A stretch of 64,000 nt of DNA. Origin: Candidatus Magasanikbacteria bacterium RIFOXYD1_FULL_40_23. Its GTDB lineage: Bacteria; Patescibacteriota; Patescibacteriia; Magasanikbacterales; GWA2-37-8. Position numbers and translations under genes: made by a program. Below, piece by piece: positions 992 to 58,236 of this stretch. The notes beneath the pieces were generated by a model. That model was not told the origin of the DNA. It saw nothing but the letters and a program-made list of their open reading frames with translations, and ran no database searches. The stretch spans positions 329,423-393,422 of the forward strand of contig MFRA01000005.1 in assembly GCA_001783215.1 (NCBI GenBank), read 5' to 3'. Every line of letters begins with the position of its first letter. Within the stretch, counting starts at the first letter, position 1.

Positions 992-1417
992 ATGGAACAA
1001 TTTGTAGTGCCACAATTTATAGAAGTGGAAGATAAGATCTTTGGCCCTATTACCACCAGACAGTTTATTATTTTACTGGTAACTGGGTTGGTTTTATTTA
1101 TTATTTTTAAATTAGCCGACGTAACGTTATTTATTTTTCTAGCTGTGTTAATAGGCGGTTCGGCTGTGGTAGTGGCCTTTGTAAAAGTAAATGGCCAGCC
1201 ATTCCATTATTTTTTATTAAATATAGTGCAAACATTGCGCCGTCCAAGCAGAAGAGTGTGGTATAAGAGTTTTAGCAAGACTGAGCTGTCAGAGTCAATT
1301 AAGTCCGGAAAACTGGAGGTAGTCGAAGTAATAAAAGAAGTTCCGCGAATGTCTTATAGCAGAATCCGGGATCTATCACTTATAGTAAATACAGGAGGGT
1401 ATTACAAACCAGAGTAG
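992..1417 (+). CDS. PrgI-family-like small membrane protein (T4SS-associated)
   Basis: N-terminus VPQFIEVEDKIFGPITTRQF followed by two TM helices is the typical PrgI-family pattern; it lies just upstream of a VirB4-like ATPase. Confidence 0.45.
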   Translation: MEQFVVPQFIEVEDKIFGPITTRQFIILLVTGLVLFIIFKLADVTLFIFLAVLIGGSAVVVAFVKVNGQPFHYFLLNIVQTLRRPSRRVWYKSFSKTELSESIKSGKLEVVEVIKEVPRMSYSRIRDLSLIVNTGGYYKPE

Positions 1418-1444
1418 CGTCTTTTTTATAGAGTTTCGTAGTGT

Positions 1445-1514
1445 GTCATTCTGAGCAAAGCGAAGAATCCCTCTCGTTCGGGTGTAAGGGATCCTTCACT
1501 CCGTTCAGGATGAC
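1445..1514. repeat. palindromic intergenic element family A, copy 2
   Basis: near-identical to copy 1; lies between the PrgI-like gene and the next ORF. Confidence 0.8.
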
Positions 1515-1549
1515 AGTTGAAGCGAGTCTCATTTGCAATTATCAAAAAT

Positions 1550-2227
1550 ATGGAAGAAAAACCACAAAAAAAGAAAATATCAGTCCCAAGTGCTCAAAGC
1601 CATCTGCCTTTTGCCGAAATCAAATTTGATACGGCAATCATGAAAGATGGTACTTTGCGTGCTGTTCTTATGGTTTCTAGCATTAACTTTGCTTTGAAAA
1701 ATGAAGACGAGCAAAACGCCATTATTTCTTCCTATGTTTCTTTTTTAAACGGCATTGATTTTCCTTTGCAGATTGTGATTCAGTCTCGTCAGTTATATAT
1801 CAAACCGTACTTAGAAAAATTATTAAAAAAAGAGCGTGAACAAACCAACGAATTATTGCGAGTACAAATAGCGGACTATAGATCTTTCGTATCCGAGCTT
1901 GTTAGTCTGGGCAACATTATGAGTAAACAATTCTTTGTGGTTGTGCCTTTTGATCCGCTATCCAACAAAAAAAGAGGTTTTTGGTCCAGAATAAAAGAAG
2001 TTATAAACCCGGCGATAACTATTAAGCTTAAAGATGAGAGATTCCAGCAGCGGAAGCGTGATTTGGATATGAGAGTGCGACAGATACAATCTGGACTTGC
2101 AAGTATGAACTTGGAAGTAGTAAGACTAGATACACAATCGCTAATTGAGTTATTTTATTCTACATATAATCCTGATATTGCCTTTAGCGAACACTTGCCA
2201 TCGGTAAGTGAGTTAAGAGTGGAGTAA
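1550..2227 (+). CDS. hypothetical protein (T4SS-module associated)
   Basis: ORF in the same orientation between the PrgI-like and VirB4-like genes; the start was moved to ATG 1550 because the 1517 start overlaps repeat copy 2. Confidence 0.35.
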   Translation: MEEKPQKKKISVPSAQSHLPFAEIKFDTAIMKDGTLRAVLMVSSINFALKNEDEQNAIISSYVSFLNGIDFPLQIVIQSRQLYIKPYLEKLLKKEREQTNELLRVQIADYRSFVSELVSLGNIMSKQFFVVVPFDPLSNKKRGFWSRIKEVINPAITIKLKDERFQQRKRDLDMRVRQIQSGLASMNLEVVRLDTQSLIELFYSTYNPDIAFSEHLPSVSELRVE

Positions 2228-2251
2228 GCAAAGTTAACTTATATTTCGAAT

Positions 2252-4120
2252 ATGGCTTTTCAACCAAAATTTGCCGTTCCATCTTTCAAGAAAAAAGGGC
2301 CTTTATCCAGTAAGGAGATTGAGATTGCCAAAAAAGCAGGCGAGGAATTGATTACTCTGGAAGAAGAGAGGGTCTATCGCGAAGGCACGGTTTCCATAAA
2401 AGATCTGTTGGCGCCTTCGGCTTTTAATGTTGAATCTAATTTTATAAAGTTGGGCGACATATTTTGTCGTACTATATTTGTGGTAACTTATCCTAGATAT
2501 ATTTCTATTGGCTGGAGCTCTCCTGTGCTTAATCTTTCTATTACCATGGATGTGGGTATGTTTTTTTACCCTGTGCAAGCTCCTGTGATTTTGAAACAAT
2601 TAAGAAACAAAGTAGGTGCTTTGGAAGCCCAGTTAAATGCAGATTCAGAAAAGGGTGCGCCTCGCGATCCGGTGCGTGAAACCGCTTTGCGCGACATAGA
2701 GCAGCTGCGCGATGATCTTACCCAAGGCATTGAGCATTTTTTCCAGTTTTCTTTTTACGTAACTCTTTATGCCAAAACAAAAGAAGAGCTTGATCAAACT
2801 TCCGAAGATGTAGAAAACATTTTTGGTTCCAAACTTATTACCAGTCGTAAAGTTTTGTATCAAGCGGAACAAGGGTTTAATTCTACTCTGCCTTTGGCAA
2901 ATGATGAGCTGATGATATCTTTTAACCTGAACTCTTCGCCAATTGCTGCGTCTTTTCCATTTACTTCCGCAGAGCTTACTTCAGACGATGGTATTCTCTA
3001 TGGTGTAAACCGTCACAACAACAGCCTTATTTTATTTGATAGATTCTCTTTGCAAAACGCCAACATGGCAGTGTTTGCCACTTCTGGTGCTGGTAAAAGT
3101 TACGCTATCAAGTTAGAAATTTTGCGCAGTATGATGATGGGCGCAGATATTATTGTTATTGACCCGGAAATGGAATATAAACATTTGGCAGATGCTGTGG
3201 GTGGTACCTATATAAACATTTCTCTTTCTTCCGAAAGTAAAGTAAATCCTTTTGACTTGCCAAGACCAACTGGCGGACAAGATTTTTCTACAGAAGATAT
3301 AATTCGTGGCGCTGTTATAACTGTAAAAGGCTTGCTCCGTATCATGCTCGGCACGCTTACCACTGAGCAGGATTCTGTAATAGACCGCGCGCTGATAGAA
3401 ACCTATGCCAAAAAAGATATTACCCCTGAAGCAGATTTGGCTGTAGTGCAGCCACCGATAGTTCAAGATTTGCAAGAAATTCTAGAAGGCATGGAAGGTG
3501 CGGGTGATTTGGTTCTTCGATTAAAAAAATATACTGAAGGTACTTTTAGTGGTTTGTTTAACGCGCCTACCAATGTAAATATGAAAAATCAGTTGGTAGT
3601 ATTTAGTGTGCGCGATTTGGAAGACGAGCTGCGCCCTATGGCCATATATGCTATAGTTAACTATATATGGAATGTAGTAAGATCCGAACATAAGAAAAGA
3701 ATACTAGTCATCGATGAAGCCTGGTGGCTTATGCAACACGAAGACAGTGCCAGATTTATCTTTGCTTTGGTAAAACGCGCTCGTAAATATTATTTGGGTG
3801 TTACAACTATTACCCAAGATGTAAATGACTTTTTGAAATCTCAGTACGGACAGGCAATCGTGACCAACTCTGCTTTGCAAATGTTGTTGCGCCAATCACC
3901 GGCATCCATAGATTTGGTGCAGAAAATTTTCTTGCTTACCGAAGGCGAAAAATATTTACTCCTAGAGAGTGGAGTAGGGGAAGGGATATTTTTCGCCGGC
4001 AATAAGCATGCAGCCATTAAAGTGGTGGCTTCATATACCGAAGATCAGTTGGTAACCACCAATCCGGAGCAGATTTTGGAGATAGAAAAATCTAAGAAAG
4101 AGTTCGAAAAACAAGCATAA
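2252..4120 (+). CDS. virB4: VirB4/TrsE/PrgJ-type conjugative-transfer ATPase
   Basis: Walker A (VFATSGAGKSYAIK) and Walker B (ILVIDEAWWLM); N-terminal LAPSAFNVESNFIKLGDIFCRTIFVVTYPRYI is a VirB4-like block. Confidence 0.7.
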   Translation: MAFQPKFAVPSFKKKGPLSSKEIEIAKKAGEELITLEEERVYREGTVSIKDLLAPSAFNVESNFIKLGDIFCRTIFVVTYPRYISIGWSSPVLNLSITMDVGMFFYPVQAPVILKQLRNKVGALEAQLNADSEKGAPRDPVRETALRDIEQLRDDLTQGIEHFFQFSFYVTLYAKTKEELDQTSEDVENIFGSKLITSRKVLYQAEQGFNSTLPLANDELMISFNLNSSPIAASFPFTSAELTSDDGILYGVNRHNNSLILFDRFSLQNANMAVFATSGAGKSYAIKLEILRSMMMGADIIVIDPEMEYKHLADAVGGTYINISLSSESKVNPFDLPRPTGGQDFSTEDIIRGAVITVKGLLRIMLGTLTTEQDSVIDRALIETYAKKDITPEADLAVVQPPIVQDLQEILEGMEGAGDLVLRLKKYTEGTFSGLFNAPTNVNMKNQLVVFSVRDLEDELRPMAIYAIVNYIWNVVRSEHKKRILVIDEAWWLMQHEDSARFIFALVKRARKYYLGVTTITQDVNDFLKSQYGQAIVTNSALQMLLRQSPASIDLVQKIFLLTEGEKYLLLESGVGEGIFFAGNKHAAIKVVASYTEDQLVTTNPEQILEIEKSKKEFEKQA

Positions 4121-15132: not shown

Positions 15133-15241
15133 AAGCGGATTTTATCACGCCGAAGCTTCATCTTTGATAATTCGCATGAACCAAGTATTATGAAAAACTT
15201 AGAACTCGCCTCTGCCCTAAAGGGCTACGGCGAAGCGAAGG

Positions 15242-15326
15242 CGGAGAGGGAGGGATTCGAACCCTCGGTGCCTTGCGGCACACAGCTTTAGCAAAGCTGC
15301 ACAATCGACCACTCTGACACCTCTCC
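15242..15326 (-). tRNA. tRNA-Ser (anticodon GCU by hand fold), type II with long variable arm
   Basis: 7-bp acceptor GGAGAGG/CCTCTCC; anticodon stem CAGCT/AGCTG with loop TTGCTAA; variable arm GTGCC-GCAA-GGCAC; T-arm GAGGG-TTCGAAT-CCCTC; CC but no A encoded. Confidence 0.7.
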
Positions 15327-15856: not shown

Positions 15857-16099
15857 CTAAAATTTTTTATCCAAATGTTTTTTTAAAAAAGCTCTACCAG
15901 AACCAGATTTTAAATATTTTTCAAATTCAAATGCAACGTATTTATCTTTGAATGCGAAATAGGCTGTAAGTTCTAGTGGTCGGCGATTGATTGTGGCGGG
16001 AACCTGGCCTTTCTGATGTCTTGATATGCGTTCTTTTAGGTCTGAGGTGCAACCAGAATAAAAACCGTCTTTGCATTTTAATATATAAACATAGTGCAT
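15857..16099 (-). CDS. small GIY-YIG nuclease-family protein (YhbQ-like), copy 2
   Basis: 80 aa, identical to copy 1 at both ends but diverged in the centre (ERISRHQKGQVPATINRRPLEL vs ERMARHQKGQVPATAKRLPVEL). Confidence 0.7.
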   Translation of the reverse strand: MHYVYILKCKDGFYSGCTSDLKERISRHQKGQVPATINRRPLELTAYFAFKDKYVAFEFEKYLKSGSGRAFLKKHLDKKF

Positions 16100-16208
16100 A
16101 AGCGGATTTTATCACGCCGAAGCTTCATCTTTGATAATTCGCATGAACCAAGTATTATGAAAAACTTAGAACTCGCCTCTGCCCTAAAGGGCTACGGCGA
16201 AGCGAAGG

Positions 16209-16295
16209 CGGAGAGATAGAGATTCGAACTCTAGAGGCCCTTTCGAGCCCGGCAGTTTAGTAAACTGCTGCCTTAAACCACTCGGCCATCTCTCC
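16209..16295 (-). tRNA. type II tRNA (Ser-like); anticodon reads ACU in my hand fold, which is atypical
   Basis: acceptor GGAGAGA/TCTCTCC; D-arm GCC-GAGTGGTTTAA-GGC; anticodon stem GCAGT/ACTGC with loop TTACTAA; long variable arm; T-arm TAGAG-TTCGAAT-CTCTA. Confidence 0.6.
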
Positions 16296-19000: not shown

Positions 19001-19234
19001 ATGGGCAAGCCACCGCTGGAGTTTACTCCATTCCATGAGCCAATAGAGAAGAAGATAGCCCGTTGGTGGGCTGGAACCAAGCGTTTGGTCGGCACTTCCG
19101 CTGTAGGCGGAGTAGTAGCTGTGCTTGCACCAATTCCCGGTCCGCACACCGTGGTGATGTTGGGCGGTATGGTTGTGGGAGCAGCCGTTGCTGTAGTTAC
19201 GCGTAAGAAAAGAGTCCCTATTGTGAAGAAGTAG
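19001..19234 (+). CDS. small membrane protein
   Basis: 77 aa, two hydrophobic helices, preceded by an AGGAGG Shine-Dalgarno 8 nt upstream. Confidence 0.4.
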   Translation: MGKPPLEFTPFHEPIEKKIARWWAGTKRLVGTSAVGGVVAVLAPIPGPHTVVMLGGMVVGAAVAVVTRKKRVPIVKK

Positions 19235-19263
19235 CAGTTGGCAAAGGAAGGCTGTTTGGTCGC

Positions 19264-19296
19264 CCTGAGTTGCGCGTTGCGGTTCAGGGTTTTTTA
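19264..19296 (+). terminator. intrinsic terminator
   Basis: CCCTGAG-loop-TTCAGGG followed by TTTTTT. Confidence 0.5.
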
Positions 19297-19414
19297 ATTC
19301 ACAACTAAAATATAGGAAAGTATGTTATAATATAAATAGATATAAAGAGGGGAAAACAATCTCGACAAAATCGGGATTGTTTTTATTAAAATAATTAATA
19401 CATTTTTTGTAAAC

Positions 19415-19920
19415 ACTCCTTCATCATCCCATTTTGTCAGCAAAAACCTCTATAGCCGCTTTCTTTAGAAGAAAGTGGCGGAAAGAATCGCTCGCGGTGG
19501 AAAGGATTCAGAAAATTTAGGACTCGTTTTCGTTAATTTTCAAAACTCACCAGCTTTTTGTTCGCAAAAAGCTGTCTCAAACATTAAAAATTTCCTTTAA
19601 GGAACTCTCAAACTCATCTCTAAATTTTAACTTCACCTTTCCAAAGCTCGCCTGGACAATCGACGGACAACCAATTGTCCCCGAGCATATGGATATCGAG
19701 CCGAGCAGTTCGAGATGAGTTTTTCGTGTCTGGCTCTGTGTTTGAACCCCCGAGGGGGTGAGTTCAGAGTCAGAGAAAAATGAGTCCGAACTGGCTGTGA
19801 GATATTCATCCGCGAGGCAGTTTTGGGGTATCACCCCGTTTTGTTGACAAAATGGGGTGATAAAGGTTAGCGAGCGATTCTTGCCCACTTCTACTAAAGA
19901 AGTGGGGAGAAGAAAGGTTT
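19415..19920. other. structured non-coding region / candidate ncRNA or decayed element with long-range inverted repeats
   Basis: a perfect 15-bp hairpin at 19830-19863 with a partial copy at 19417-19445; 19456-19500 is roughly reverse-complementary to 19867-19918; CCCCCGAGGGGG hairpin at 19748-19759. Confidence 0.3.
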
Positions 19921-20034
19921 GTAAAGGCGGAATGTATATTTGACATTAAAGTTAAAAAAATATAAAGTATCGTGGTAATTTTAAGTATATACAGCTGGAA
20001 AATTCCGGCTGTAATTAAATATATCCATATCTCT

Positions 20035-22110
20035 ATGAAGCAAAATATAGTGAAAGCGGTGAAACTTTTAATCTATGCGACATTTTTTGTACCGCTACTG
20101 GTTCTGCCGATGTCATTTATCTTTCCTTTCATCGTTCCAAAGATTTTAGTATTTCGATCTTTGGTAGAACTAATGCTGGCCGGGTATATTTTACTTCTTA
20201 TTATAAACTGGAAAGAGTTTAAGCCTAAATTTACTTTGTTAAATTTGGCTTTGGCTGCTTTTTTTGCCAGTTTTACAGCTTCTACTTTTATTGGTGTAGA
20301 TCCTTATCATAGTTTTTGGGATAATCACGAAAGAATGTTAGGTCTGTTTACTATTTTTCACTACGTTGCATATTATCTTGTTTGTAGTTCTGTATTCAAA
20401 ACTTGGGAAGATTGGAAAAAGGCTCTAAAAATATTTTTGGTAGCTGGCTCGGCCGTAATGTTTATTGGTATTTTGCAACACTTCAAATCCGGTATACTGC
20501 TTAACCAAGATATGGGCAGAGTCGCTAGTACTTTGGGTAACTCTATCTATGTTGGTGGGTACGGTTTGTTCTTAATCTTTGTATCATTTTTACTTTTCAT
20601 CAAAGAAAATAATAAAGTTTGGAAATGGCTAGAAGTGGCTGCTGGTATTTTGGCAGTATTTGGTATGTTCTTCAGTGGTACCCGTGGTTCTATACTTGGT
20701 TTGGTAGCTGGTTTGGGTATAGCTGTGCTTGGTTATATTATCGTGTTGCGAGACTTTCCTAAAGCCAGAAAAATTATGGTTGGTGTAGCAGTAGGTGGTG
20801 TGGCTGTTATTTCTTTATTGTATGCATTTAGACAAACTAGTTTTGTGCAAAGCATTCCAGCAGTTAACCGCACTATCAATACTTCTTTTACCAGCGTAAA
20901 GAATAGTCCGCGCTGGATAGCTTGGGAAGTGGCTGTAGAAAGTTGGAAGAAAAAGCCAGTATTTGGTTGGGGGCCAAACAATTTCTTTTACGCTTTCAAT
21001 GCGCACTATCAACCAAGATCTTTGGAGTATGGTTATGGAGAAACTTGGTTTGATAATGCTCACAATATTATAATGAATACTTTGGCAGTACAGGGAGCTA
21101 TAGGTTTGGTCAGCTACCTATTTATTTTCTTGGCAGCTATTATTATGTTGGCGCTTGCTAGAATCAGAAAAACTTTGGACTTACACGTGGCTGTAATTGG
21201 CGCTTCGTTTTTGGTGGCCCACTTGGTGCAAAATGTAACCGTGTTTGAAAATCCAACTTCTTATTTATATTTTATGTTTTGGTTGGCGATGGTAGGTAGC
21301 TTGTCAGTAAGAGTAGCTGAACCAGTTGTGGCCGCAATAAAAAATAATGTAAAACCAAACAATACTACACCAGATAAAACTATGAAAATGGGTGGTGTAA
21401 CCACTGCTGGTGTATTGGCTTTGCTTGTCGTGTTTATATTTAATATCCAGCCGGCCAGAGCCAATATGAAGACGTTGGAGGCGCTTAAATTTTTAAGTTA
21501 CCAACCGGAAGTAGGAGTAGAAACAATGAAAATGGCGTTGGCTTTTAACTCTCCTCACATAGACGATATTCGCAGTGATATTACCCGTACGCTTATCTCT
21601 GTGCTTAGCGCCGAAAAATCCAAATTAAGCAAGGAAAAAAACTTGGAAGTATTTAATATAGCTTCCGAAGCGATTAAAGCCAATATAGCGCTTCATCCTT
21701 ATGATATAAGAAACTATCTTACATTGGGTCAGTTGAGTCAGGTTGGTTATATGTTAACCGGTGATGCAAAATATATCGGAGAATATGGAACTAATTTAGA
21801 AGTAGCTAGAACTTATTCTCCTAAACGTCAGCAAATTATATACAATATCGCCAATTTTTATTTACAGATTGGTAGAAACGACGAAGCTGTTAAGCTGTTA
21901 GAAGAAACTATAGATGATGATCCAAAAATAGCAGAAGGTTATTGGCGTTTGGCTTATCTATATAAGTTAATTGGAAAATTAGATAAAGCCAAAGAGGTTT
22001 TGGATTGGGCTACGAAGAATAATATAGTATTTAGACCGGAAGAGCAGACATTGGTAGACGAAATCCTAGACGCTATAAAAGCTAGTGGCGTTAAAGCCAA
22101 AGTGAAATAA
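20035..22110 (+). CDS. O-antigen ligase/PglL-like (Wzy_C) polytopic membrane protein with C-terminal TPR repeats
   Basis: about 12 TM helices with an FSGTRGSILG Wzy_C-like loop; C-terminal 200 aa TPR-like (AEGYWRLAYLYKLIGKLDKA); the start was moved to ATG 20035. Confidence 0.5.
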   Translation: MKQNIVKAVKLLIYATFFVPLLVLPMSFIFPFIVPKILVFRSLVELMLAGYILLLIINWKEFKPKFTLLNLALAAFFASFTASTFIGVDPYHSFWDNHERMLGLFTIFHYVAYYLVCSSVFKTWEDWKKALKIFLVAGSAVMFIGILQHFKSGILLNQDMGRVASTLGNSIYVGGYGLFLIFVSFLLFIKENNKVWKWLEVAAGILAVFGMFFSGTRGSILGLVAGLGIAVLGYIIVLRDFPKARKIMVGVAVGGVAVISLLYAFRQTSFVQSIPAVNRTINTSFTSVKNSPRWIAWEVAVESWKKKPVFGWGPNNFFYAFNAHYQPRSLEYGYGETWFDNAHNIIMNTLAVQGAIGLVSYLFIFLAAIIMLALARIRKTLDLHVAVIGASFLVAHLVQNVTVFENPTSYLYFMFWLAMVGSLSVRVAEPVVAAIKNNVKPNNTTPDKTMKMGGVTTAGVLALLVVFIFNIQPARANMKTLEALKFLSYQPEVGVETMKMALAFNSPHIDDIRSDITRTLISVLSAEKSKLSKEKNLEVFNIASEAIKANIALHPYDIRNYLTLGQLSQVGYMLTGDAKYIGEYGTNLEVARTYSPKRQQIIYNIANFYLQIGRNDEAVKLLEETIDDDPKIAEGYWRLAYLYKLIGKLDKAKEVLDWATKNNIVFRPEEQTLVDEILDAIKASGVKAKVK

Positions 22111-43339: not shown

Positions 43340-43354
43340 TTATCATACTTTATA

Positions 43355-43465
43355 GGGGCTAAAGCCCATATATTCTCATTCACTCAGAAATATCCAGATT
43401 CGGTATTTATAATTCGCAAGCAATTATAAATACCTCACCGGCTATTTCACTCACTCATTTCGAAT
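43355..43465 (+). promoter_or_regulatory. conserved hairpin+leader cassette (family B), copy B
   Basis: GGGGCTAAAGCCC + ATATATTCTCATTCACTC ... TTTCACTCACTCATTTCGAATATG. Confidence 0.65.
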
Positions 43466-57013: not shown

Positions 57014-57066
57014 ATTACGCGCCGCGTTTCAAATGACGTTACGCGGCATGATTTCGCTAAATCAAT

Positions 57067-58236
57067 ATGTCTACCAGAAAAATAACCGTAGCTCAGATCC
57101 GTGGAGATGGGTTAAGTGATCGCGAAACCAAAACCTGGGAATATTTTTCTGACGATATTGTGCAGACAGTTTTTGCATCTCGAAAAAACGTTTATTCTCA
57201 ATCCGCTTTGCCTTTTCCAATCATAACATTGCCAGCTAGTAGTGATAATTTTTTATTCAAAAATTACTATAAATATTTTTTTGGTCAATACAAAAGAATG
57301 TTTGGTTTAGAAAAACATTTAGCCGGGTTTGACGTGGCGCATGCGGGTGAGCTTTATAATTATTATACGTACCAAGCTGTCTCGGCAAAAAAGATAAATA
57401 AGAATTTAAAAGTAGTAGCTACAGTTTGGGAAAATAGTTTTGGCAGATTTGAATATAATTACTGGCCGGGATTTAAAATCCCACCAGCTTATTGGCGTCG
57501 TCAGCTCAAAGCGGTTATGGATCGCAACAAAGATGGAGTAGATAAGTTTTTACCAGTCTCTCAAGATGCGGCTGGTTTGTTGTCAGATTACGGCGTTGCA
57601 GATAGTCAAATTCAAGTAGTTGTTCCTGGCATCATCCCAACTCCTGAAGGCAAAATAGTTGTACCTACGCAATTCGCTGGTAAGCAAATTTACTTAATGG
57701 TTAATCGTCTGGTAAAGGAAAAAGGGGTCTATGATGTTTTGTATGGCTGGAGAATATATCTTTCCAAAGCATCAGACGCCAGTCGCAAATTACTTGTTAT
57801 CGTAGGAGAAGGTCCGGAGCTAGGTAATATGCGCCGACTCGTTAAAGAGTGGCAAATGGAGAATAAAATTGCTTTTGTTAATCAGATGCCGTATAGCGAA
57901 GTTTTGGGTCTTTATAAGGGTGCGCAGTGCTTAATTTTGGGCAGTATTCCACGACCAACCTGGCAAGAACAGTTTGGCTATGTGCTCGCCGAAGCTATCT
58001 GTGCCGGTGTGCCTATTGTAGCCACCTATAGTGGTGCAATCCCAGAAGTGGTGGGTGAGGCTGGTTTGCTTGTGCCGCCCGCTCATCCTATTGCGCTGGC
58101 AAATGCCTTGCTTTCAACAGATGACGCCTCTGTTTATAATCGTCTAAAAACAGGTTGTCAAAAAGAAGCAAAGAAGTTTGCGGCTGAAAGCTACGCTCGT
58201 CAAGTCAGTGATATTTACAGATCTTTAGTTGGTTAA
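57067..58236 (+). CDS. family-4 (GT-B) glycosyltransferase
   Basis: C-terminal EQFGYVLAEAICAGVPIVATYSGAIPEVV EX7E region. Confidence 0.55.
   Translation: MSTRKITVAQIRGDGLSDRETKTWEYFSDDIVQTVFASRKNVYSQSALPFPIITLPASSDNFLFKNYYKYFFGQYKRMFGLEKHLAGFDVAHAGELYNYYTYQAVSAKKINKNLKVVATVWENSFGRFEYNYWPGFKIPPAYWRRQLKAVMDRNKDGVDKFLPVSQDAAGLLSDYGVADSQIQVVVPGIIPTPEGKIVVPTQFAGKQIYLMVNRLVKEKGVYDVLYGWRIYLSKASDASRKLLVIVGEGPELGNMRRLVKEWQMENKIAFVNQMPYSEVLGLYKGAQCLILGSIPRPTWQEQFGYVLAEAICAGVPIVATYSGAIPEVVGEAGLLVPPAHPIALANALLSTDDASVYNRLKTGCQKEAKKFAAESYARQVSDIYRSLVG

Follow-up and report, generated by a model that had tools for sequence, protein, structure and literature searches.

A 64,000-nt stretch of DNA from a metagenome-assembled genome (MAG) of Candidatus Magasanikbacteria, which belong to the candidate phyla radiation (CPR), was analysed and is called the window throughout; contig MFRD01000013.1 of GCA_001783315.1 is 99.99-100% identical to it. 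In this window a stretch without a gene runs from the stop codon, at 19234, of a 77-aa open reading frame (ORF; 19001-19234) to an ATG at 20035. This ATG is most likely the start of a gene with Wzy_C and TPR domains (Pfam Wzy_C, E = 1.9e-20; Wzy below), because public assemblies call a 691-aa gene there. The first-pass annotation, made by reading the sequence, described the gap as a 650-bp region and a candidate for a large structured RNA or a decayed element. The gap is real and longer than was claimed (~800 bp), the reported terminator upstream of it is present (19262-19290 plus a T-run), and the GC content is raised locally as described (0.43-0.48 within the region versus 0.31-0.38 in the adjoining DNA). 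Comparison with related genomes shows that positions 19414-19917 are a lineage-specific insertion into a pre-existing spacer. What was inserted, between a short conserved unit and the Wzy promoter, is probably one copy of a palindromic repeat that is non-coding and non-autonomous. The features are collected in Table 1.

Table 1. Features of the gene-free stretch and its flanks, in window coordinates except where another locus is named
Feature	Position	Strand	Remark
Intrinsic terminator of the 77-aa ORF, 13-bp stem and T-run	19262-19296 (stem 19262-19290)	+	flank, outside the element
Conserved short unit: extended -10 promoter, AAAGAGGGGAAAACAA, hairpin, U-run	19316-19392	+	found in relatives by nhmmer
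Copies of the short unit	L003 3767-3850; L004 2083-2166; L005 3766-3849; L007 208-288; L008 3768-3852; L014 1516-1583		
Direct repeat TTTGTAAA (8 bp), left copy	19406-19413		
Inserted element, a large imperfect palindrome composed of hairpin modules in a mosaic	19414-19917	+	504 bp
Segment a1, degenerate copy of the 5' arm and loop of the terminal hairpin	19418-19445	+	28 nt, 89% complementary to 19839-19866
Unit L: hairpin GCCGCTTTCTT-TAG-AAGAAAGTGGC plus GGAAAGAATCGCTCGC	19455-19495	+	inverted partner of unit R
Degenerate inverted module; terminal hairpin A, CAGCTTTTTG-TTCG-CAAAAAGCTG, at 19551-19574	19547-19650	-	weak covariance-model match
Palindrome centre, GCTCG...GGACAAT..ATTGTCC...CGAGC	19646-19686		5' ends (CCGAGC) of two head-to-head modules meet
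Module M: CCGAGC, long irregular hairpin, UUUUGGGG, terminal hairpin	19681-19862	+	best-preserved unit; match to model R1
Long hairpin H5 of module M, apex CCCCCGAGGGGG at 19745-19756	19706-19793	+	hypervariable between strains
Terminal hairpin B, TATCACCCCGTTTTG-TTGA-CAAAATGGGGTGATA	19829-19862	+	family signature
Short opposite-strand module: unit R (19870-19910) and the shared palindromic hairpin B	19829-19922	-	covariance model 14.9 bits, E = 0.001
Direct repeat TTTGTAAA (8 bp), right copy	19918-19925		
Wzy promoter TTGACA-17-TAAAGT (19940-19968) and 5'-UTR hairpin (19991-20012)	19940-20034	+	ahead of ATG 20035

Presence, absence and boundaries of the insertion

A search with the Wzy protein, taking one genome per species, gave 80 orthologous loci at 44-78% identity. 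Their sources are MAGs of Candidatus Magasanikbacteria and of other Patescibacteria, and at most of the loci the upstream gap is shorter than 300 nt. In the five closest relatives (L003, L004, L005, L007 and L008; Wzy 72-78% identical) the gap keeps two pieces only: the short unit 19316-19392, and the Wzy promoter and 5'-untranslated region (5'-UTR; 19937-20024) with its hairpin. These pieces lie ~10-85 nt apart in the relatives and ~540 nt apart in the window, and this difference marks 19414-19917 as an insertion. The short unit, present in relatives without the element, is older than the insertion. The ~180-nt module from which the insertion is built (described below) is absent from 79 of the 80 loci; L037 alone carries related sequence, and in its nearest relative, L047, a gene sits where L037 has its element.

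The flanks of the insertion, when rejoined across the 8-bp direct repeat TTTGTAAA, resemble the L003 spacer. This repeat may be a target-site duplication or an integration core, and is only suggestive because the chance probability of an exact 8-mer repeat here is a few per cent. Similarity to the copy at L170 stops at 19920, and that to the strain variant L165 at 19923. To the right of the element in L165 (3390-3420) the sequence is unrelated to the window and begins ATTTTTTGTATAC, nearly the element's left flank ATTTTTTGTAAAC; given these two flanks, the length of any target-site duplication is not fixed. Terminal inverted repeats, for which the first-pass annotation had suggested a search, were looked for and none was significant. 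The classical form was rejected since the end-versus-end score was no better than in shuffles: with the first 45 nt set against the reverse complement of the last 45 nt, 1287 of 2000 shuffles scored at least as high as the real sequence. The 28-bp inverted repeat 19418-19445/19839-19866 is internal on its right side.

Modules, copies and strain variants

The element at L037 lies upstream of Wzy on the opposite strand relative to the window (nhmmer E = 0.006). The two share collinear motifs, namely a CUUUUUG-UUCG-CAAAAAG hairpin, CCGAGCnUAUnnnAnnCGAGCCG, and a hairpin CCCGUUUUG-loop-ACAAAAUGGG with the same G.U wobble. A metagenome scan for the signature hairpin returned 74 loci, mostly chance matches, from which true relatives were taken by an nhmmer filter and inspection of context: L103 (identical to L037), L120, L135, L140, L097 and L094. 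The L120 copy lies downstream of a thioredoxin-like ORF that itself follows infB, the L135 copy downstream of rplA and ahead of a dCMP-deaminase gene, and the L140 copy between a KH-protein gene and trmD. L094, L097 and L140 have an identical last stretch (65 nt of it in L094, ~87 nt in L097) that runs into three different flanks, with a sharp 3' end, ...ACAAAATGGGTGGCAT, also written ...GGGTGGCAT. A further copy, L170, was found via P0002, a database protein discussed below, and has the gene order ComEC, methyltransferase, element, MBL-fold gene, NusA, YidC. Window 19920-19681 reappears there, reversed, at positions 2415-2654; identity over these 240 nt is 97.5%, whereas the flanks are unrelated. 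The sequence is therefore multi-copy, with copies at unrelated loci (L170; L094/L097/L140) and an empty site in L003, L004, L005, L007 and L008, and the related modules in other CPR contigs stand in unrelated gene contexts in either orientation. Within the 64-kb window the whole stretch is single-copy. The insert had no BLAST match in collections of phages and plasmids, and a scan of viral contigs for the signature hairpin gave 0 matches.

To define the module, we used the 3' 170 nt of L037, L120 and L135, which align at 94% column identity. RNAalifold gave a long irregular hairpin closed by CCGAGC/GCUCGG and then the terminal hairpin, with five covarying pairs among just three sequences. A covariance model (R1) was built from these three only, with the window left out. 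In the window it has a single match, full length, at 19681-19862 on the + strand (35.8 bits, E = 1e-6), which independently confirms homology and shared architecture. The module thus defined is ~100-190 nt long and reads CCGAGC, long irregular hairpin, UUUUGGG-N-CCCGUUUUG-loop-CAAAAUGGG.

With filters off, R1 also finds weaker inverted modules in the window, at 19829-19922 (-) and 19547-19611 (-; 6.4 bits). In L037 it finds a head-to-head pair, 3475-3644 on the - strand (202 bits) and 3671-3843 on the + strand (53 bits), the latter at the position homologous to the window's degenerate inverted module; in L170 it finds another such pair (37.6 and 36.9 bits). By nhmmer the window insert matches its own reverse complement over 19417-19866 (E = 3e-8). 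Modules thus occur singly or as head-to-head inverted pairs, and the whole element is a 400-550-bp imperfect palindrome, both strands of which fold into strings of hairpins. The element is a mosaic of ~100-190-nt modules in alternating orientation, and this accounts both for its long-range inverted repeats and for the near-equal folding of its two strands. The central hairpin 19646-19686 is there because two module heads meet; the same layout is seen in L037 (3645-3670) and L170. Segment a1 resembles the outer hairpin of L170's second module.

The hairpins and long-range inverted repeats of the first-pass annotation were all found within 1-2 nt of where it had put them, with two corrections. 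Hairpin B (19829-19862) does have 15 bp and a 4-nt loop, but it is not perfect Watson-Crick, since it contains one G.T wobble. The partial copy of it at 19418-19445 exists, but reproduces the 5' arm and loop rather than the 3' half. The ~45-nt segment said to be reverse-complementary to DNA downstream resolves into 19461-19473/19889-19901 and 19480-19495/19870-19885 (92-94% complementarity), and the CCCCCGAGGGGG hairpin is present. Both the stem sequence of hairpin B and its G.U wobble are kept in the modules of the window, L037, L120, L135 and L140/L097/L094, whilst the loop varies; perfectly paired variants occur in L037-M2 and L170(+).

Looking up the 77-aa neighbour gave ten contigs of the same locus. 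Identity to the window is 99.9-100% in seven full-length contigs and, over the part covered, in L167 and L168; it is 92% in L163 and 87% in L165. L163 differs from the window only over the centre apex and the long hairpin H5 (together ~19660-19815) and in one base of the hairpin-B loop (19844 T>C). L165 differs in the same way and has scattered substitutions in the 5' half in addition; its changes in hairpin A give G.U pairs on the - strand. Both carry a different, longer hairpin in place of H5. Between the two, nearly the sole difference is an 8-bp apical stem whose changes are fully compensated (AACACCTG/CAGGTGTT versus ATTGGCCG/CGGCCAAT). A simple inversion of the variable hairpin between the window and L163 was rejected (direct alignment 35, reverse-complement 8). 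Such wholesale swapping of perfect stems between near-identical strains looks like templated, palindrome-preserving turnover of DNA rather than stepwise compensation. Where L165 loses similarity to the window it continues into an FtsW/RodA gene on the minus strand instead of Wzy; this junction is due to recombination or rearrangement at the element, or else to chimeric assembly at low coverage.

To measure the conservation of pairing, eight modules were aligned to R1, with partners shifted by 1-3 columns as controls. Canonical pairs fill 92.9% of the pair cells (35-48% in the shifted controls), and 32 of 61 pairs covary (4-9 in the controls). Counted on each module's own sense strand, G.U outnumbers A.C by 22 to 2, even for inverted modules within one element. 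This polarity argues that the hairpins matter when single-stranded, as RNA or as single-stranded DNA (ssDNA). Opposite-orientation modules within an element, however, each keep their own polarity, of which no single transcript could make use; this is better explained by features inherited from a polar intermediate at the time of copying. As the copies preserve their base-pairing, there is no obvious decay of the element.

Folding energies tell the two strands apart poorly. The minimum free energy of 19410-19925 is -205 kcal/mol on the + strand, compared with -135 +/- 5.9 in dinucleotide shuffles (z = -11.8), and the - strand gives z = -9.6. Sense and antisense energies are similar, and choosing the strand by energy is ambiguous: the window, L120 and L135 favour sense, and L037 and L140 favour antisense.

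By eye, the first-pass annotation could not match RNase P, tmRNA, SRP or group II domain V here, and covariance-model searches against the families of Rfam, which included RNase P, tmRNA, SRP, 6S, group II intron, OLE, GOLLD, ROOL, HEARO and raiA, bear this out. At the gathering thresholds Rfam finds nothing but two tRNAs in the 64-kb window. A permissive scan of 19150-20100 has a best E of 0.9, with bit scores far under the thresholds, and the elements of L037, L120 and L135 are also unmatched; ARAGORN finds no tmRNA in the window. A protein-coding origin, either as a decayed gene or with the 103-aa minus-strand ORF (19577-19888) as a real gene, is the least credible of all the explanations that we weighed, and is as good as refuted. 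The ORF does exist, but it has no Pfam match and its sole match among 5.8 billion proteins, P0002, is itself a spurious reading frame called in a further copy of the element. It is broken by indels into 42-aa and 68-aa pieces in L163, and ORFs across the related copies lie on differing strands and in differing frames with frameshifts between them. The earlier non-coding call for this ORF is therefore upheld. A decayed gene homologous to the L037 ORF was rejected, as the strands differ relative to the element and there are frameshifts and stops, and a protein search with the spurious ORF of L135 matched only itself. A type I toxin-antitoxin locus, for which a conserved small hydrophobic ORF with an overlapping antisense RNA would be expected, does not fit either, since the window, L037 and L120 have no conserved small ORF in the element. 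From the AUG in the CCGAGCAUAUG motif, for instance, the frame runs for 9 aa in the window but for 20 aa in L037, and in L120 a UGA follows directly.

Interpretation and rival explanations

The stretch is a lineage-specific, non-coding, modular palindrome with copies at unrelated loci, a sharp 3' boundary beside the conserved hairpin, and stems that are hypervariable yet paired. Our best reading is of a new REPIN/MITE-like (MITE, miniature inverted-repeat transposable element) large palindromic repeat family of CPR, absent from Rfam and from the literature that was searched; a literature search on CPR structured RNAs and CPR MITEs found nothing specific.

The REP, REPIN and BIME repeats handled by RAYT, an HUH Y1 transposase, are likewise intergenic, non-coding, multi-copy and patchy among related genomes. 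As in REP, the unit is an imperfect palindrome in which the stem, including a conserved imperfection, is kept and the loop varies. As in REPIN and BIME, inverted pairs of units form a larger hairpin, and mosaics of alternating orientation occur. The dimensions differ: modules of 100-190 nt and elements of 400-550 bp, against 20-40 nt for REP and ~70-110 nt for REPIN. The terminal hairpin is REP-sized at 28-34 nt, but the copied unit is 100-240 nt, with one element in 64 kb. Other differences from REP are the CPR host, an apparently low copy number where REP sequences number tens to hundreds, and the lack of any conserved GTAG-type head, and no RAYT gene was found among 18 scanned window ORFs or beside the copies.

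Bacterial MITEs (Correia/CREE, ERIC, RUP and the Rickettsia palindromic elements) share with it a non-autonomous nature, a length of a few hundred bp, long hairpins if transcribed, a place between genes, presence/absence polymorphism in close relatives and, possibly, a short flanking direct repeat. Unlike them, it has no significant outer terminal inverted repeat, it is a head-to-head dimer of hairpin-ended modules, and its internal stems are hypervariable yet perfectly compensated. The ends of IS200/IS605 elements and PATEs (compare TnpB omega RNA) offer a third likeness: a conserved subterminal hairpin a few nt from the sharp 3' boundary ...GGGTGGCAT in three copies, no terminal inverted repeats, ~170 nt of structured and conserved sequence upstream of the end, and a strand-specific hairpin constraint that suggests a single-stranded intermediate. 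Against this likeness, neither tnpA nor tnpB is to be found near a copy, no target motif of 4-5 nt stood out as conserved, and the window copy is flanked by an 8-bp direct repeat, which IS200/IS605 elements do not make. The left-end hairpin, moreover, is degenerate or absent in several copies (a degenerate copy in direct orientation in the window and L140, none in L120 and L135), and no left-flank motif common to the copies was found.

Several points weigh against a mobile repeat. Few family members were recovered, about nine distinct modules, with one copy in the 64-kb window. No transposase, HUH enzyme, reverse transcriptase or recombinase lies beside any copy or among the 18 scanned window ORFs, in which Y1_Tnp likewise had no match. 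The outer boundaries 19414 and 19917 carry no significant terminal inverted repeat; the TTTGTAAA repeat could be chance, as three exact 8-mers repeat in the 581-nt stretch; and L165 could be a chimeric low-coverage contig. The eight modules were aligned so as to fit the structure in the model, and the share of paired cells is inflated by this; several rows of the alignment are closely related. Covariation and G.U bias, finally, would be equally expected of a functional RNA.

A functional structured RNA, as a new class of large or modular non-coding RNA, is a live rival, although we think it rather unlikely to be the answer. It could be an RNA carried on a mobile element, like the HEARO/omega RNAs of IscB/TnpB, or a family of paralogous RNA genes. 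Proteins or RNAs would then bind at the terminal hairpin and the UUUUGGG tract, and specificity would be tuned by the variable stems. The folding (z = -11.8 in the window, -7 to -9 in L037), the recovery of the window with its structure intact by a model built without it, the covariation among three and among eight modules, and the G.U wobble of hairpin B with the wider G.U polarity all suit such an RNA. So do two internal-loop motifs that are kept amid variable stems (UGUUUGAG / UGAGUUCA in the window, L163 and L165; AACUCG..CUCAAACA in L037 and L120), and five of six copies are co-oriented with the upstream gene. The stretch also recalls OLE, GOLLD, ROOL, HEARO and raiA in its ~500 nt, many helices and GC above the surroundings, and GOLLD, ROOL and HEARO in its sporadic distribution. 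Those large ornate RNAs, however, are not built of pseudo-palindromic repeated modules in both orientations, no covariance model matched, and a defined transcription unit is missing here: on the + strand there is no promoter-like site before the element and no terminator after it. Modules in both orientations that each keep G.U on their own strand are unusable by a single transcript, the sequence is absent at the locus in 79 of 80 related genomes and lacks a consistent gene neighbourhood, and the whole-stem swaps between near-identical strains resemble palindrome turnover at the DNA level. Of the two proposals in the first-pass annotation, then, the structured, non-coding part of the large RNA stands and the single large RNA gene does not, given its absence in relatives, its mosaic build and its copies elsewhere. 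The decayed element comes closer to the truth, except that the maintained pairing does not look like decay.

Two explanations tied to this locus are far less likely. In an inverton, the 28-bp inverted repeats would flank a segment flipped by a recombinase, giving phase variation of the downstream Wzy and glycosyltransferase genes; this is very improbable. The repeats are indeed 89% complementary, 393 bp apart and directly upstream of an O-antigen-ligase-like gene, and the L037 element is oriented oppositely relative to Wzy. The ten public contigs of the locus, however, are all collinear and in the same orientation, with L163 and L165 showing replacement and not inversion. The repeats do not enclose the Wzy promoter, which relatives lacking the element have kept as well, no promoter facing Wzy was found inside it, other copies adjoin housekeeping genes, and no recombinase was found nearby. 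Slightly more doubtful still, and already refuted in large part, is a role as cis-regulatory leader or attenuator for the Wzy operon, in which read-through from an upstream promoter is controlled by alternative pairings (GGGG/CCCC and a U-tract versus hairpin B versus the long-range a1 helix). Mutually exclusive pairings do exist around 19824-19866 and the stretch is co-oriented with Wzy, but it is missing in close relatives that have the same gene and promoter, Wzy's own promoter is downstream of the element, and the same module stands beside unrelated genes, also reversed.

If the stretch is a non-autonomous palindromic repeat, its copies most likely spread, within CPR genomes and from one to another, by way of an intermediate that is single-stranded and has a defined polarity. 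A trans-acting enzyme would recognise the terminal hairpin, in which both the sequence and the G.T/G.U wobble are conserved, much as HUH (Y1) transposases handle REP/REPIN and IS200/IS605 ends, whilst the internal hairpins would turn over rapidly by templated, palindrome-preserving replacement. At this locus the effect is probably neutral or mildly insulating, because the Wzy promoter and the upstream unit are intact and outside the element. A bolder proposal, for which we hold out little hope, makes the modules the mobile form of an undescribed single-strand-dependent CPR element: ~180-nt hairpin-ended RNA or ssDNA units with a polar intermediate, whose stems are rewritten wholesale yet stay paired. 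If true, this would point to a new mechanism of templated palindrome diversification, or to a programmable guide-like stem that some partner recognises.

CPR/Patescibacteria genomes are small and streamlined and are thought to be poor in mobile DNA. Large palindromic repeats that move between unrelated loci, and apparently between genomes, would enlarge the known CPR mobilome, and would also mark rearrangement hot spots and assembly breaks in CPR MAGs. The replacement, at strain level, of whole stems by different ones that are perfectly complementary is unusual, and could offer a way into the upkeep and diversification of long palindromes. For annotation, the lesson is that an extreme folding z-score and apparent covariation can stem from nested inverted repeats and not from an RNA gene.

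The short conserved unit and other features of the window

The short unit upstream of the insertion has the layout promoter, AAAGAGGGG..., hairpin, U-run. Its extended -10 element TGTTATAAT, which the first-pass annotation had placed 2 nt away, is at 19323-19331, and the hairpin at 19353-19383 is followed by the U-run. The unit lies upstream of Wzy in L003, L004, L005, L007 and L008 (nhmmer E = 1e-14 to 4e-19) and ~2.4 kb upstream of Wzy in L014 (E = 1.9e-9). Its stem covaries among relatives: CAAUCUCGA/UCGGGAUUG, CAAUCUUGA/UCAAGAUUG, CAAUCCCGAG/CUCGGGAUUG and CAACCGCGA/UCGGGGUUG. This conservation of promoter and covarying stem supports the short promoter-to-terminator transcript (~19337-19400) proposed earlier. 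About 10 nt past the promoter the unit reads (A/G)AAGAGGGG(G)AA(A/G)CAA, followed by a 9-10-bp covarying hairpin and UUGUUUUUAUU; the predicted RNA is ~45 nt long and bears a Shine-Dalgarno-like GAGGGG. The unit is mostly directly 5' of the Wzy promoter, with L014 as the exception, and could be a small RNA or a decoy.

Elsewhere in the window, ARAGORN finds a tRNA-Ser with an unusual ACT anticodon at 16207-16295 on the - strand (Rfam tRNA model 54.5 bits). About 100 nt away is an 80-aa ORF with a GIY-YIG nuclease domain (15857-16099, - strand), and another tRNA-Ser (GCT) occupies 15240-15326. At 992-4120 three ORFs together look like a type IV secretion or conjugation-like cluster: one of the PrgI family (141 aa) and, after it, two of 236 aa and 622 aa. 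A comparison of a 405-aa ORF, made to see whether L170 belongs to the same genome, showed only that the window ORF is not NusA.

Further repeats were seen in the same set of contigs. Part (~90 nt) of the interior of the L140 element (2793-2976) recurs on the opposite strand in L097 425-512 (nhmmer E = 3e-11), ~800 nt from L097's own short module. The L140 interior also matches its own reverse complement, which suggests further nested repeat units in that lineage. A leader-like repeat of ~75-110 nt, TATATTCTCATTCAYTC...GAAAT, a variable hairpin and ATTTCnCTCAYTCATTTC, is found at window 43350-43465, L120 4350-4423, L037 6076-6149 and L135 1540-1620. It stands directly before a start codon in the window and L120, and the palindromic element of L135 contains it as an insertion (nhmmer E = 5e-4 to 6e-6). 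Finally, a ~46-nt hairpin motif, GCCGCGTTTCAAATGACGTTACGCGGCATGATTnCG..AATCAA, 87% conserved, is present at window 57019-57065 and at L170 2023-2069 and 5162-5207. In the window its end is 1 nt short of the ATG at 57067. Of the two L170 copies, one stops ~27 nt ahead of the start of YidC and the other is inside the methyltransferase ORF; the motif may be a 5'-UTR element.

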